From Escherichia coli (GTDB taxonomy: Bacteria > Pseudomonadota > Gammaproteobacteria > Enterobacterales > Enterobacteriaceae), in assembly GCF_003334815.1 (NCBI RefSeq), contig NZ_QOWO01000034.1: a DNA stretch of 40,339 nt. One strand, 5' to 3'. Shown one piece after another: positions 2,484 through 11,213 of this stretch. A model generated the notes under the pieces. It was given only the letters and a program-made list of their open reading frames with translations. It was not told the DNA's origin and made no database searches. How positions within the stretch are numbered: position 1 is the first letter of the stretch; each line of letters begins with the position of its first letter. The position numbers were made by a program, and so were the translations under genes.

Positions 2484-4324
2484 TTATTGCGACTGCCGGA
2501 CACGTTGACCACGGCAAAACAACCTTATTGCAGGCGATTACTGGCGTAAATGCTGACCGTCTGCCGGAAGAAAAAAAGCGCGGCATGACCATCGATCTCG
2601 GCTATGCCTACTGGCCGCAGCCGGATGGTCGCGTGCCTGGTTTTATCGACGTTCCCGGTCATGAAAAGTTTCTTTCCAACATGCTGGCGGGCGTTGGTGG
2701 TATCGATCACGCGCTGTTGGTGGTGGCGTGCGATGACGGCGTGATGGCACAGACCCGTGAGCATCTGGCGATTTTGCAGCTGACCGGTAACCCGATGCTG
2801 ACAGTGGCGCTGACCAAAGCCGATCGCGTGGACGAAGCGCGTGTTGATGAGGTTGAACGCCAGGTAAAGGAGGTTCTGCGGGAATACGGTTTTGCTGAGG
2901 CAAAACTGTTTATCACCGCAGCAACCGAAGGTCGGGGAATGGATGCCCTGCGCGAGCATCTGCTTCAGTTGCCGGAACGCGAGCACGCCAGCCAACATAG
3001 TTTCCGCCTCGCGATTGACCGCGCATTTACCGTAAAAGGTGCCGGGCTGGTCGTCACCGGTACGGCGTTAAGCGGGGAAGTGAAGGTAGGCGATTCACTC
3101 TGGCTGACTGGTGTAAATAAACCGATGCGTGTACGTGCGCTGCATGCGCAAAACCAGCCAACAGAAACCGCCAATGCCGGGCAGCGTATCGCGCTTAACA
3201 TCGCGGGTGATGCGGAAAAAGAGCAGATTAACCGTGGCGACTGGCTGCTTGCCGATGTGCCGCCAGAGCCGTTCACACGGGTGATTGTCGAGCTTCAAAC
3301 CCATACACCGCTGACCCAGTGGCAGCCGCTGCATATTCACCACGCCGCCAGCCACGTCACGGGACGCGTTTCACTGCTGGAAGATAACCTTGCTGAACTG
3401 GTCTTCGACACCCCGTTATGGCTGGCAGATAACGACCGCCTGGTATTGCGCGATATCTCTGCCCGCAACACGCTGGCCGGAGCGCGCGTCGTGATGCTTA
3501 ACCCGCCGCGTCGCGGTAAACGTAAGCCGGAATATCTGCAATGGCTGGCGTCTCTTGCACGGGCGCAGAGCGATGCCGATGCGTTATCTGTTCATCTGGA
3601 ACGCGGCGCGGTTAACCTTGCGGATTTCGCCTGGGCGCGCCAGCTCAACGGCGAAGGGATGCGCGAATTGCTGCAACAGCCTGGTTATATTCAGGCTGGT
3701 TATAGCTTGTTGAATGCGCCGGTTGCCGCCCGCTGGCAGCGGAAAATTCTCGACACATTAGCGACTTATCATGAGCAACATCGCGATGAACCTGGCCCTG
3801 GGCGCGAACGTCTGCGACGTATGGCGTTGCCAATGGAAGATGAAGCGCTGGTACTGTTGCTGATTGAAAAGATGCGCGAAAGCGGCGACATCCACAGCCA
3901 TCACGGCTGGCTGCATCTGCCAGATCACAAAGCGGGCTTCAGCGAAGAGCAGCAGGCCATCTGGCAAAAAGCAGAGCCACTGTTTGGTGACGAACCGTGG
4001 TGGGTGCGTGACCTGGCAAAAGAGACGGGAACCGACGAGCAGGCAATGCGCCTGACTCTACGCCAGGCGGCGCAGCAAGGAATAATTACCGCGATCGTTA
4101 AAGATCGTTATTACCGTAACGATCGGATTGTCGAGTTTGCCAATATGATCCGCGATCTCGATCAGGAGTGTGGTTCAACCTGCGCGGCGGATTTCCGCGA
4201 TCGCTTAGGCGTAGGCCGAAAGCTGGCAATTCAGATTCTGGAATATTTTGACCGCATTGGCTTTACGCGTCGTCGTGGAAATGATCATTTATTGCGCGAC
4301 GCATTATTATTTCCGGAAAAATAA
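2480..4324 (+). CDS. selB: selenocysteine-specific translation elongation factor
   Basis: 614 aa ORF with N-terminal GTPase P-loop [11 protein letters not shown], DxxG and NKxD motifs; recognised as SelB. Confidence 0.95.
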
Positions 4325-4382
4325 GGAAATGATTAATTAAGTTTTAAAATAAATTAATACAAAATTCTTATGAATTTAAAAA

Positions 4383-4416
4383 AAGCACATTGTTTAATGA
4401 ATACAATGTGCTTTTT
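4383..4416 (+). terminator. candidate intrinsic terminator downstream of selAB (possibly bidirectional)
   Basis: Inverted repeat agcacattg ... caatgtgc with ~11 nt loop, A-run upstream and TTTTT downstream, in an AT-rich intergenic region. Confidence 0.5.
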
Positions 4417-4513
4417 ATTAGATTAATTTTGATAATCAATAATACTGATCATATTTTCGAATGAAAATCCTCAGTAAGCTGCCCGCCCTTTTTTACACTT
4501 TCAGGAGTGTGTT

Positions 4514-5665
4514 ATGGCAGCTTCAACGTTCTTTATTCCTTCTGTGAATGTCATCGGCGCTGATTCATTGACTGATGCAATGAATATGATGGCAGATTAT
4601 GGATTTACCCGTACCTTAATTGTCACTGACAATATGTTAACGAAATTAGGTATGGCGGGCGATGTGCAAAAAGCACTGGAAGAACGCAATATTTTTAGCG
4701 TTATTTATGATGGCACCCAACCTAACCCCACCACGGAAAACGTCGCCGCAGGTTTGAAATTACTTAAAGAGAATAATTGCGATAGCGTGATCTCCTTAGG
4801 CGGTGGTTCTCCACACGACTGCGCAAAAGGTATTGCGCTGGTGGCAGCCAATGGCGGCGATATTCGCGATTACGAAGGCGTTGACCGCTCTGCAAAACCG
4901 CAGCTGCCGATGATCGCCATCAATACCACGGCGGGTACGGCCTCTGAAATGACCCGTTTCTGCATCATCACTGACGAAGCGCGTCATATCAAAATGGCGA
5001 TTGTTGATAAACATGTCACTCCGCTGCTTTCTGTCAATGACTCCTCTCTGATGATTGGTATGCCGAAGTCACTGACCGCCGCAACGGGTATGGATGCCTT
5101 AACGCACGCTATCGAAGCATATGTTTCTATTGCCGCCACGCCGATCACTGACGCTTGTGCACTGAAAGCCGTGACCATGATTGCCGAAAACCTGCCGTTA
5201 GCCGTTGAAGATGGCAGTAATGCGAAAGCGCGTGAAGCAATGGCTTATGCCCAGTTCCTCGCCGGTATGGCGTTCAATAATGCTTCTCTGGGTTATGTTC
5301 ATGCGATGGCGCACCAGCTGGGCGGTTTCTACAACCTGCCACACGGTGTATGTAACGCCGTTTTGCTGCCGCACGTTCAGGTATTCAACAGCAAAGTCGC
5401 CGCTGCACGTCTGCGTGACTGTGCCGCTGCAATGGGCGTGAACGTGACAGGTAAAAACGACGCGGAAGGTGCTGAAGCCTGCATTAACGCCATCCGTGAA
5501 CTGGCGAAGAAAGTGGATATCCCGGCAGGCCTACGCGACCTGAACGTGAAAGAAGAAGATTTCGCGGTATTGGCGACTAATGCCCTGAAAGATGCCTGTG
5601 GCTTTACTAACCCGATCCAGGCAACTCACGAAGAAATTGTGGCGATTTATCGCGCAGCGATGTAA
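4514..5665 (+). CDS. yiaY: iron-containing (group III) alcohol dehydrogenase family protein
   Basis: 383 aa [22 protein letters not shown]...; GGGSPHD and metal-binding His motifs typical of Fe-ADH; recognised as YiaY. Confidence 0.9.
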
Positions 5666-7492: not shown

Positions 7493-7912
7493 GCACGTTG
7501 TTACAATTTACGTTTTAAACCTACGTGCGCAATAACCCAGACTACGCCAACAGAAGTACGTTTCTGGGGCGTGTTTTGTCAGGAGTTTAATCTCGCGTTT
7601 CGATGGTGAGCGGGCGAACCAGGCCGTAAATCACCATTGGTGATCCGAGGCCAATCAGCAATAAACGGTAGATAATTGAAGGTTTAATACGCTTAATCTG
7701 TACTGTGGATGTTTTACTGGAGTTATTCATTAGTTTGGCCAATAGTTCCACTATTTCAATATGATAAACCTCGTCCTGTTGAAAAACCAGACAGCACATT
7801 TAAGAAAGTATATAAAAAACAATATGTCGTTATATAAATAAGGAAATTGCACTGCATCATGGCATTTCATAATATGCGTTAATTGTTCTTTTTTATATTC
7901 TTTGAGGGAAAT

Positions 7913-8236
7913 ATGTTCCTGGACTATTTTGCACTGGGAGTGCTTATTTTTGTATTTCTGGTGATCTTCTATGGGATCATTATTTTACATGATATTCCCT
8001 ACCTGATTGCCAAAAAACGTAATCATCCTCATGCCGACGCCATTCATGTTGCTGGTTGGGTGAGTCTTTTTACGTTACATGTTATCTGGCCGTTTTTGTG
8101 GATTTGGGCCACGCTTTACCGCCCGGAGCGGGGATGGGGAATGCAAAGCCATGATTCATCCGTTATGCAACTGCAACAGCGCATTGCCGGGCTGGAGAAA
8201 CAGCTCGCCGACATCAAATCCTCTTCTGCCGAGTAA
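7913..8236 (+). CDS. yiaW: small inner-membrane protein (DUF3302 family) with C-terminal coiled-coil
   Basis: Track ORF trimmed to ATG at 7913 after gaggga RBS, giving 107 aa [17 protein letters not shown]...; two hydrophobic helices then [18 protein letters not shown]. Confidence 0.8.
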
Positions 8237-8241
8237 TACTT

Positions 8242-9378
8242 ATGGATTTACTGATTATTTTGACCTATGTGGCTTTTGCATGGGCAATGTTTAAGATCTT
8301 CAAAATTCCCGTAAATAAATGGACCATTCCCACAGCGGCCCTGGGTGGAATATTTATTGTCAGCGGTCTAATTCTGTTAATGAACTATAACCATCCGTAT
8401 ACCTTTAAAGCGCAAAAAGCGGTTATTTCTATTCCTGTTGTCCCACAGGTGACTGGTGTGGTGATTGAAGTGACGGATAAGAAAAATACGCTGATTAAAA
8501 AAGGTGAGGTGCTATTTCGACTGGACCCGACGCGTTATCAGGCGCGGGTGGATCGGCTGATGGCGGATATCGTTACCGCAGAACATAAACAGCGGGCGTT
8601 GGGCGCAGAGTTAGATGAGATGGCGGCGAATACTCAGCAGGCAAAGGCCACGCGGGATAAATTCGCTAAAGAGTATCAGCGTTACGCACGTGGCAGCCAG
8701 GCGAAAGTAAACCCGTTTTCAGAACGCGATATCGATGTGGCGCGGCAAAATTATCTGGCGCAGGAAGCCTCCGTGAAGTCATCGGCGGCGGAACAAAAAC
8801 AGATCCAGAGCCAGCTGGATAGCCTGGTGTTGGGTGAACATTCTCAAATCGCCAGCCTGAAAGCACAGCTCGCGGAAGCAAAATATAACCTTGAGCAGAC
8901 GATAGTGCGTGCGCCGAGCGATGGTTATGTGACCCAGGTACTGATTCGTCCGGGTACCTATGCCGCGTCGCTGCCGCTACGTCCGGTGATGGTGTTTATA
9001 CCCGATCAGAAACGACAAATCGTGGCGCAGTTCCGTCAGAACTCCTTGCTGCGACTGGCTCCTGGCGACGATGCGGAAGTGGTGTTTAATGCTCTGCCAG
9101 GTAAGGTATTCAGCGGTAAGCTGGCAGCCATTAGTCCAGCCGTTCCCGGCGGAGCTTATCAGTCGACCGGCACCTTACAGACGTTAAACACAGCGCCGGG
9201 TTCAGATGGCGTTATCGCGACCATTGAACTGGATGAGCACACTGATTTGAGCGCTTTACCAGACGGTATTTACGCCCAGGTGGCGGTTTACTCTGATCAT
9301 TTCAGCCATGTCTCGGTGATGCGCAAAGTGCTATTACGCATGACCAGCTGGGTGCATTACCTTTATCTCGATCATTAA
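8242..9378 (+). CDS. yiaV: membrane-fusion (periplasmic adaptor, HlyD-like) family protein
   Basis: 378 aa; N-terminal TM segment, long coiled-coil-like central region, C-terminal beta-rich region; 5 bp after yiaW stop, implying co-transcription. Confidence 0.85.
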
Positions 9379-10349
9379 TCTTCGCTTTCCGCCGCTTGTT
9401 CAGGCCGCAGTTGCTGCGACTGAGCAAGCTGGTGGCGAATTTCACGCAGCATTTCATCCAGCACATACTGGACCCGCCAGGGCTGGTATTCCCGTTTACG
9501 GAAGATAGCCACCAGATCCAGCCACCATTCATAGGGTTGCTGAAAGCAGGGCACCAGCGTGCCGTCTTGCAGGTCGCTCTGCACACTTTTGTCTGGCGCA
9601 AACACAATCCCCAGGTGATTTCGTGCCAGCTCCAGCGCAGATTGCGTGTTGTCGCAAACGTAATTTCCCTTCACGCGATAATCCCGCACCTCTTTACTCC
9701 CGGCGACGTTGAAGCGCCAGATATTCGCGTCGTCGATCATCATCGAGTCGATCAAAATACAGGAGTGATGTTCGAGTTCGTCAGGACGGCTAATGGGATG
9801 TTTCTCAAGATAGCGCTGGCTGGCATAAGCGGTTACGGCATATTGGGTAATAAAACTGGCAACCAGCGATTCATCTTTTGGTGGAGCGTAGCTGATTAAA
9901 ACATCACAATCATCAGGAAATTCGACGCCTTCATAAAAGGCATTACGCTCAAGATTGCAGGTTTTTAGCGATAAGGTGATATCACCGATATCTTTAATTT
10001 TATCGATTACATGTTTGGATAAATAGGTAATTATGCCGGTTGGGGCGTAGATGGTGACCCGACCACGTTTCTCATGCTTATAATCTGCAATAAAATTATT
10101 AAGTTGCTCGTTTCTGTCCAGCATGTCGTTGATGTACGGTAACAGCGCGGTGCCAAAAGGTGTGAGCATCAGCTGCCGGGTGGTTCGGTCAAAGACTTTT
10201 AAACCCACTTTTGATTCAAAATCAGCAAGATATTTGCTGACGTTGGCCTGTGCGATGCCAAGTACAGTCGCGGCATGGCTGATATTTTCACTGGCAGCGA
10301 TTACCGAGATAATTTTTAACTCCCGGTACTTAAGTTGTAATTTTGTCAT
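9375..10349 (-). CDS. yiaU: LysR-family transcriptional regulator
   Basis: 324 aa; N-terminal HTH ([32 protein letters not shown]) typical of LysR-type regulators; convergent with yiaV, divergent from yiaT. Confidence 0.9.
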
Positions 10350-10472
10350 CGCAACAGCCCAATTATATATAATTTTATATATTACTATATAAATATGAAT
10401 CTTGCACCGGAGAAATTGTAAGCATTATTATGCCGACTCTTTTTTATCTTATTTTAAAATGGAATACCGGAC

Positions 10473-11213
10473 ATGTTAATTAATCGCAATATTGTGGCGT
10501 TATTTGCGTTGCCTTTTATGGCAAGCGCAACTGCTTCTGAATTATCCATTGGTGCTGGTGCGGCTTATAATGAATCGCCTAATCGCGGTTATAATGAAAA
10601 TACGAAGGCAATTCCGCTGATTAGTTATGAAGGTGATACTTTTTATGTTCGTCAGACCACGTTAGGTTTTATTCTGTCGCAAAGTGAAAAAAATGAACTT
10701 AGCCTGACCGCATCCTGGATGCCGCTGGAATTTGACCCTACCGATAATGACGATTATGCCATGCAACAGCTTGATAAGCGTGATAGTACGGCTATGGCGG
10801 GGGTTGCCTGGTATCACCACGAGCGTTGGGGAACCGTGAAAGCCTCTGCAGCTGCGGACGTTCTGGATAACAGCAACGGCTGGGTGGGGGAGCTATCGGT
10901 ATTCCACAAAATGCAGATAGGTCGTCTGTCGCTGACACCTGCGCTGGGCGTTCTCTATTATGACGAGAATTTCAGTGACTATTACTATGGCATTTCAGAG
11001 AGTGAGTCCCGTCGTAGCGGTCTGGCAAGTTATTCCGCGCAGGATGCCTGGGTGCCCTATGTCAGCCTGACGGCAAAATACCCGATAGGAGAGCACGTCG
11101 TATTGATGGCGAGCGCAGGATACAGCGAGCTGCCGGAAGAGATTACCGACAGCCCGATGATTGATCGTAATGAGAGTTTTACCTTTGTCACCGGGGTGAG
11201 CTGGCGTTTTTAA
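10473..11213 (+). CDS. yiaT: MipA/OmpV-family outer-membrane protein
   Basis: 246 aa with signal peptide MLINRNIVALFALPFMASATA and C-terminal aromatic residue (..SWRF) typical of beta-barrel OMPs; recognised as YiaT. Confidence 0.85.
   Translation: MLINRNIVALFALPFMASATASELSIGAGAAYNESPNRGYNENTKAIPLISYEGDTFYVRQTTLGFILSQSEKNELSLTASWMPLEFDPTDNDDYAMQQLDKRDSTAMAGVAWYHHERWGTVKASAAADVLDNSNGWVGELSVFHKMQIGRLSLTPALGVLYYDENFSDYYYGISESESRRSGLASYSAQDAWVPYVSLTAKYPIGEHVVLMASAGYSELPEEITDSPMIDRNESFTFVTGVSWRF

Follow-up and report, generated by a model that had tools for sequence, protein, structure and literature searches.

The divergent yiaU–yiaT spacer of Escherichia coli carries a conserved three-box module and is a probable LysR-type operator region

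In the classical divergent regions of LysR-type regulators, benM–benA, ilvY–ilvC and cynR–cynTSX, a recognition site lies near −65 and activation sites lie beside the −35 element; the family features used for comparison here are those described in PMC11495319. YiaU is one of the few LysR regulators of E. coli K-12 that are still poorly characterised, and two groups have given it two names, CsuR and LpsR, and partly differing regulons. The 2022 CsuR study from Shimada and colleagues reportedly found five SELEX targets of high affinity among genes for the cell surface, and described activation. RegulonDB v12 credits the first YiaU regulatory interactions to this CsuR paper (Shimada et al. 2022, Microbiology, doi 10.1099/mic.0.001166). 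Rodionova 2022, in which YiaU was renamed LpsR, reported that the yiaU/yiaT pair is conserved, with yiaT as the divergent neighbour, that yiaT is expressed at a very low level (base mean 26) and that its expression rises by log2 2.8 (approximately 7-fold, P = 9e-7) in a yiaU knockout (PMC9068703). The sign of YiaU regulation is inconsistent, as the knockout suggests repression whereas RefSeq names YiaU an activator, and the knockout effect on yiaT could also be a cis effect of losing the AT-rich yiaU DNA beside the spacer. ChIP-exo of YiaU-8myc in M9 glucose yielded eight sites, at waaP, adeP (adeP/yieH), gltB, yjiT, cspA, mgtA, guaC and deoA, none of them in the yiaU/yiaT spacer (Gao 2021; PMC8464067 supplement). 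In vitro, genomic SELEX recovered this spacer as a binding site of both RpoD holoenzyme and H-NS, and the aldB/yiaW spacer is likewise listed as an RpoD-holoenzyme and H-NS site (Shimada 2014; PMC3946193). An RpoS-holoenzyme SELEX site has also been placed in the yiaU/yiaT spacer (Shimada 2017; PMC5493296).

Here we analysed this spacer within a 40,339-nucleotide stretch of E. coli DNA (contig NZ_QOWO01000034.1), called the window, to which all coordinates refer. Open reading frames and annotation (RefSeq in the case of yiaU) agree on the two genes: yiaU (csuR/lpsR) lies on the minus strand at 9375–10349 and starts with an ATG at 10349–10347, and yiaT, which encodes a MipA/OmpV-family outer-membrane protein, occupies 10473–11213 on the plus strand. 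The regulator gene thus diverges from its neighbour across 123 bp (10350–10472), as the initial annotation had it; its coordinates proved exact. The region at about 10350–10472 is 100% identical to E. coli K-12 strains annotated with yiaU and yiaT, which confirms what the two genes are. The 324-residue YiaU has both parts of a LysR-type regulator, an N-terminal winged helix-turn-helix (Pfam HTH_1, residues 9–66, E = 1e-12) and a C-terminal substrate-binding domain (LysR_substrate, residues 95–302, E = 4e-15). Over its full length it is similar to LysR-family NCBIfam models, with every score under the equivalog cut-off.

The surrounding genes vary between strains. The yiaW-yiaV-yiaU-yiaT block (window 7700–11213) is accessory, being missing in approximately 31% of complete E. 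coli genomes, and its genes are near average in G+C (47–51%). UTI89 is without the block, and there aldB directly adjoins sgbE. yiaU and yiaV are convergent, and their coding regions share 4 bp (window 9375–9378); ExcludonFinder lists yiaU–yiaV as a convergent excludon, and yiaT–yiaU is absent from its divergent ones (PMC12288877). Between yiaT and sgbE lie the pseudogenes ysaD and ysaC (window 11232–11528), the K-12 remnants of a cluster of which O157:H7 and numerous other strains keep an intact copy; its products are a glycoside hydrolase family 127 protein, an MFS transporter and an AraC-family regulator. In E. coli strain 300709, an IS1A element stands in place of the yiaU 5′ end, the spacer, yiaT and the sgb genes as far as yiaN (L001:4052-4804), so that the yiaU/yiaT control region is deleted in this strain.

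The spacer had been described as almost pure A/T. Its base counts (A43 C20 G15 T45) give 28.5% G+C, compared with 51% for the window, and put it in the lowest 1% of 123-bp windows; it is markedly AT-richer than its surroundings, as an H-NS-silenced promoter should be. The description as nearly pure A/T fits only a 39-bp core at 10361–10399, in which 37 of 39 bases are A or T (5% G+C); it has 12 TpA steps and includes a stretch of 24 nt made up of A and T alone, longer than any other in the window. The lowest G+C in the whole window is found elsewhere, at 4254–4515, where it falls to a minimum of 15% per 123 bp, below that of the yiaU/yiaT spacer.

Near-palindromic runs in the core and LysR-type T-N11-A dyads had been taken as pointers to an operator. 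The runs exist: TATATATAATTTTATATATTA at 10364–10384 holds a perfect 8-2-8 inverted repeat, ATATATAA-tt-TTATATAT (10365–72 and 10375–82), and a second perfect inverted repeat, TTTATATA-ttac-TATATAAA, lies at 10374–10393. Such palindromy is not above chance, as perfect 8-nt arms arose in 1542 of 5000 (31%) dinucleotide-preserving shuffles of the core, and TATATATAATTTTATATATTA is not the unit that is conserved. T-N11-A is not enriched either, with 12 occurrences in the spacer compared with 14.5 ± 2.6 in shuffles, and does not discriminate. Because both features are at chance level in TA-rich DNA, neither is informative, and we dropped both as evidence.

What is conserved is a unit of three short boxes, in a fixed register and followed by a −10-like hexamer: TATATA-N7-ATAT-N5-TATATAAATA-N6-TTGCA. 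Numbered from the predicted yiaT start and read on the plus strand, box 1 (TATATA, 10364–10369) occupies approximately −74 to −69 and is invariant in alignment A1; box 2 (ATAT, 10377–10380) occupies approximately −61 to −58 and forms the left half of an ATAT-N6-ATAT dyad; and box 3 (TATATAAATA, 10386–10395), at approximately −52 to −43, does not vary in any orthologous locus. The boxes, which together span 10364–10395, are spaced approximately one helical turn apart, and the centre of boxes 1 and 2 falls near −65. The best-kept dyad is the even-centred ATAT-N6-ATAT at 10377–10390. Upstream of yiaT, its centre reads TTAC, GTGT, GTGC or GATC while its arms are invariant, and in the loci compared upstream of yiaT and yiaW there was not a single A/T swap within the boxes. 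Invariant arms, a variable centre and the lack of A/T swaps together form the pattern that a sequence-specific DNA-binding protein, probably a dimer, leaves, and not that of composition-driven binding.

To assess conservation, we compared 27 loci with a YiaU relative; they come from Escherichia, Citrobacter, Pseudocitrobacter and Kluyvera, plus a single Serratia. Of these, 25 have yiaU and yiaT as a divergent pair, with a spacer of 118–124 bp in 24 of the 25 (four genera). At fourfold-degenerate sites of yiaU and yiaT, K-12 shares approximately 40–50% identity with Citrobacter and approximately 70% with a divergent Escherichia lineage, and only 4 of 111 such sites (3.6%) are invariant among K-12 and 13 Citrobacter and Pseudocitrobacter species. 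Within the spacer, positions 10374–10397 (TTTATATATTACTATATAAATATG) are identical at 23–24 of 24 bases in all Citrobacter and Pseudocitrobacter, and TTGCA (10402–06) is invariant in all four genera. Two further blocks are well kept: 10414–10432 is identical at 19 of 19 positions in most Citrobacter and at 16–18 of 19 in the remaining Citrobacter and Pseudocitrobacter, and 10449–10464 at 16 of 16 in most Citrobacter and 14–15 of 16 in the remainder of the two genera. The segments at 10350–60, 10433–48 and 10465–72 are variable. In a fixed-register scan across the four genera, the 24-position pattern upstream of yiaT was complete (24/24) in 22 of 25 loci, the three exceptions being single-base changes or a register shift, and among 3713 E. 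coli genomes carrying the 46-bp module it is identical in 3677. Judged from these alignments, purifying selection on the AT core is very strong across four genera.

In Pseudocitrobacter vendiensis (L023:2253-2500), an insertion of approximately 125 bp lies between the −10 block and the ribosome-binding block, in an unconserved part of the spacer, and leaves the boxes and both conserved blocks intact; a similar insertion is found upstream of yiaW in locus L008 and in several Citrobacter loci. Judged against the ERIC primer sequences, the P. vendiensis insertion (...GTAAGTGATTCGGGCGAGCG...GCAACTTGAAGTATGACGGGTAT) resembles an ERIC-type enterobacterial repeat. Kluyvera-type spacers (L025–L027 and L158) have an extra ATATAAATA between the predicted yiaT −35 and −10 elements, 23 bp 3′ of box 3, at a place where E. 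coli and Citrobacter carry a conserved AATTGTAAGCAT. A promoter-proximal site that has moved is one possible reading of this extra ATATAAATA.

Just two copies of the 10-mer TATATAAATA are present in the window, one at 10386 and the other at 7831. Both copies are preceded by TATATA and ATAT at equal distances and followed 6 nt later by TTGCAC, which is separated from a −10-like hexamer by 18 nt before yiaT (TATTAT) and by 17 nt before yiaW (TAATAT). The second module accordingly covers 7809–7875 on the plus strand, with TATATA at 7809–14, ATAT at 7822–25, TATATAAATA at 7831–40, TTGCAC at 7847–52 and TAATAT at 7870–75, upstream of the yiaW ATG at 7913; box 1 is in the same register in both. The 24-position pattern TATATA-N7-ATAT-N5-TATATAAATA-N6-TTGC matched twice in the 40 kb when up to three mismatches were allowed, upstream of yiaT and upstream of yiaW (7809–7850), and shuffles gave no match. 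Wherever yiaW is present in Escherichia, Citrobacter and Pseudocitrobacter, its module keeps 22–24 of the 24 positions; the sequence between boxes 2 and 3 varies (GTCGT, ATCGT, GGCAT and others), and the arms are constant. When the yiaT and yiaW consensuses were compared, 26 strongly conserved positions agreed in register and at most 18 at any other shift. The LysR-type gene yiaU is thus flanked on both sides by copies of the module.

BLAST with the 46-bp module found the yiaT copy alone and no third module-bearing promoter. In a metagenome scan for boxes 2 and 3 with TTGCA, all enterobacterial matches among those listed lay upstream of yiaT or yiaW, and the other matches listed were (TA)n microsatellites or chance matches; one marine metagenome match (L099) was checked as a third module-bearing promoter and rejected. 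A YiaU-like gene of Serratia oryzae (66% identity) is found without the module, yiaT or yiaW, so the module tracks the target genes and not the regulator.

Downstream of the boxes, a weak σ70-type yiaT promoter is predicted, TTGCAC-18-TATTAT, with its −35 at 10402–10407 and its −10 at 10426–10431, inside the conserved 10414–10432 block, on the plus strand; the predicted start is at approximately 10436–10439. As TTGCAn-18-TAT(T/C)AT (10402–10431), this candidate is conserved in position across genera. After coordinate conversion, the RpoS-holoenzyme SELEX peak (3749938) falls at approximately 10426. The yiaT hexamers proposed earlier, TTGTAA...TTTTAT (Shimada 2014; PMC3946193), are not conserved in Citrobacter, which has TTGTAG; it is TTGCAn-18-TATnAT that is conserved. 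SMRT-Cappable-seq records a yiaT–ysaC transcript.

On the minus strand, two candidate promoters for yiaU were found. The distal one, TTAACA-17-TAAAAT at 10451–10479, is the best consensus match in the region (10/12), with a predicted start at approximately 10444, and is positionally conserved as TT(A/G)ACA-16/17-TAA(A/T)AT; in Kluyvera it reads TTGACA-17-TAATAT, with a perfect −35. The proximal one, TTCATA-16-TAAAAT at 10372–10399, lies inside the box region, and its −35 is poorly conserved in Citrobacter; the same hexamer pair, TTCATA/TAAAAT, was predicted in Shimada 2014 (PMC3946193). If both are real, the predicted yiaT and distal yiaU promoters would stand face to face with their start sites crossing. 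Within the conserved block TTATTTTAAAATGGAA (10449–10464, plus strand) fall a probable ribosome-binding site for yiaT (GGA) and, read on the minus strand, the −10 hexamer TAAAAT that belongs to the distal yiaU candidate. Just upstream of this ribosome-binding site is a 10-bp perfect palindrome, ATTTTAAAAT, at 10451–10460; conservation of the block around it exceeds the need of a ribosome-binding site alone, and the palindrome coincides with the −10 of the distal yiaU candidate.

We consider it likely that the spacer is a composite LysR-type promoter/operator region overlaid by H-NS, and that yiaT and yiaWV probably share a YiaU operator. The composition, the conservation and the shared module come from this analysis; what we infer is where the promoters lie, that YiaU binds the boxes and in which direction control runs. 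Read from the yiaU side, the layout would be a short unconserved yiaU leader (10350–10360), the three boxes, the weak yiaT promoter, a variable early leader and a conserved A/U-rich translation-initiation block. Boxes 1–3 would be the operator at which a sequence-specific regulator binds, YiaU being the likeliest one, with the centre of boxes 1 and 2 near −65 corresponding to the LysR recognition site and box 3, beside the −35, to the activation site. As the same module precedes yiaW in the same register, yiaT and yiaWV would be controlled together through it. Box occupancy should also autoregulate yiaU, since its candidate promoters either overlap the boxes or lie upstream of them, and H-NS binding to the AT-rich spacer would hold the yiaWVUT block at low expression. 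yiaU has been found transcriptionally silent except under bicyclomycin (PMC9308461), which fits H-NS/Rho-type silencing but is no proof of it; a literature search found no in vivo H-NS ChIP data for the spacer, no in vivo evidence that H-NS silences yiaT and no report of derepression in an hns mutant. The suggestion in the initial annotation of a YiaU operator and/or an H-NS-silenced promoter is borne out in part, though by other evidence than palindromes and T-N11-A dyads: conservation, the module shared with yiaW, the knockout effect and in vitro H-NS binding by SELEX all point to it; the ChIP-exo data, which have no peak in the spacer, do not.

We examined the in vivo YiaU sites for the module. 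The published ChIP-exo coordinates are on an older MG1655 version, offset by approximately −1977 bp from NC_000913.3 at this locus, and the peaks match the annotated genes after adding 1977. No dyad above background was found at these peaks, those at waaP, yjiT, adeP/yieH and gltB are without the module, and a scan of the whole waa cluster gave zero module matches. Either the peaks or our operator assignment fails to reflect YiaU specificity. The ‘YiaU’ peaks at yhcC/gltB, treR/mgtA and deoA/deoB recur in the ChIP-exo lists of other regulators (PMC8464067 supplement file 5), which suggests that they are non-specific signal.

The missing ChIP-exo peak also bears on the alternative that survives best, namely that the boxes are bound by another sequence-specific factor, or serve RNA polymerase as core-promoter or UP-element sequence, and that YiaU plays no role at them. 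In its RNA-polymerase version, the boxes would be overlapping −10-like hexamers driving yiaU and yiaW-side transcription; several such hexamers do lie on both strands of the AT core, and holoenzyme alone selects the yiaT and yiaW spacers in vitro (PMC3946193, PMC5493296). A module that follows yiaT and yiaW and not the regulator, as the YiaU-like gene of S. oryzae indicates, would also fit. However, promoter hexamers and UP elements are seldom invariant base for base over 24 positions across genera, and arms that never change around a centre that does are typical of a dimeric DNA-binding protein. The position of the module on both sides of a LysR-type gene and the altered yiaT expression after yiaU deletion (PMC9068703) speak for YiaU among such proteins. 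We regard an operator for some other factor, or a pure promoter function, as unlikely, although it deserves more weight than the alternatives that follow.

It is also possible, but improbable, that the AT core is a generic H-NS nucleation or silencing tract that is read by composition and shape and contains no sequence-specific operator. The low G+C and many TpA steps, the genomic-SELEX H-NS mark at both the yiaT/yiaU and aldB/yiaW spacers (PMC3946193), the very low expression of yiaT (PMC9068703) and the accessory nature of the yiaWVUT block would all agree with such a tract. Composition-driven binding, however, would allow A/T swaps and shifts, whereas the boxes are invariant at two promoters and across four genera, and the genes themselves are near average in G+C. 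The high-affinity H-NS motif TCGATAAATT has no match with up to two mismatches inside 10350–10472, the AT core included; the nearest matches are at 10478–10487 and 9997–10006, and over the window as a whole the motif shows no clear enrichment, with 53 matches compared with 42 expected and 4 of 100 shuffles reaching 53.

TA-rich DNA is easily melted, the promoters are divergent or face to face and the ilvY–ilvC pair shows supercoiling coupling, yet it is very improbable that the tract is structural DNA (a cruciform, or a melting region coupling the promoters via supercoiling) or a structured RNA leader, given that single-strand DNA hairpin energy is at the level of shuffles (z = −0.14), the predicted yiaT leader RNA is less structured than shuffles (z = +0.65), an Rfam search of the region gave no credible family match, the palindrome is not above chance and structure alone would not demand base-for-base invariance of the boxes.

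Returning to the reading of the spacer as a LysR-type operator region, we propose tentatively, and with somewhat less than even confidence, that the three-box module with TTGCA is the true YiaU (CsuR/LpsR) operator and defines a tight local regulon of two promoters, those of yiaT and yiaWV. If so, the LPS (waa) and other ChIP-exo targets, which are without the module, would be indirect or non-specific. If the module reading is true, the yiaT and distal yiaU promoters would face each other with crossing starts, and their expression would be mutually exclusive. A conserved operator at both promoters flanking yiaU would offer a testable binding site and would help to sort direct from indirect targets. 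The spacer is real and functional, and it is an ordinary textbook regulatory region that leaves current understanding unchallenged. As RNA polymerase and H-NS binding and the yiaU dependence of yiaT have already been published, the feature belongs to a familiar kind and has itself largely been described; the precise common module, which may have appeared in print before, adds a useful, testable detail and no surprise.

Compared with the published YiaU/CsuR/LpsR regulon, our analysis concerns the same locus, at which yiaT is yiaU-dependent (PMC9068703), but it differs in that the eight in vivo peaks named above are without the module; none of the studies consulted here sets out an operator in the spacer. 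Two further differences separate it from the classical LysR-type regions: the yiaT boxes are pure TA alternations with an even-centred ATAT-N6-ATAT and not an odd-centred T-N11-A, and YiaU binding here is something we infer, ChIP-exo having no spacer peak (PMC8464067). The locus resembles the H-NS-bound ‘constitutive’ promoters of Shimada 2014, whose list, drawn from low-resolution in vitro H-NS and RpoD data, includes both the yiaT/yiaU and the yiaW spacers (PMC3946193). It likewise resembles the classical LysR-type regions themselves: yiaU diverges from its target yiaT across a spacer of approximately 120 bp, the dyad boxes sit upstream of a weak −35 element, which they adjoin, at intervals of approximately one helical turn, and they overlap the regulator’s own candidate promoter, an arrangement that would permit autoregulation.
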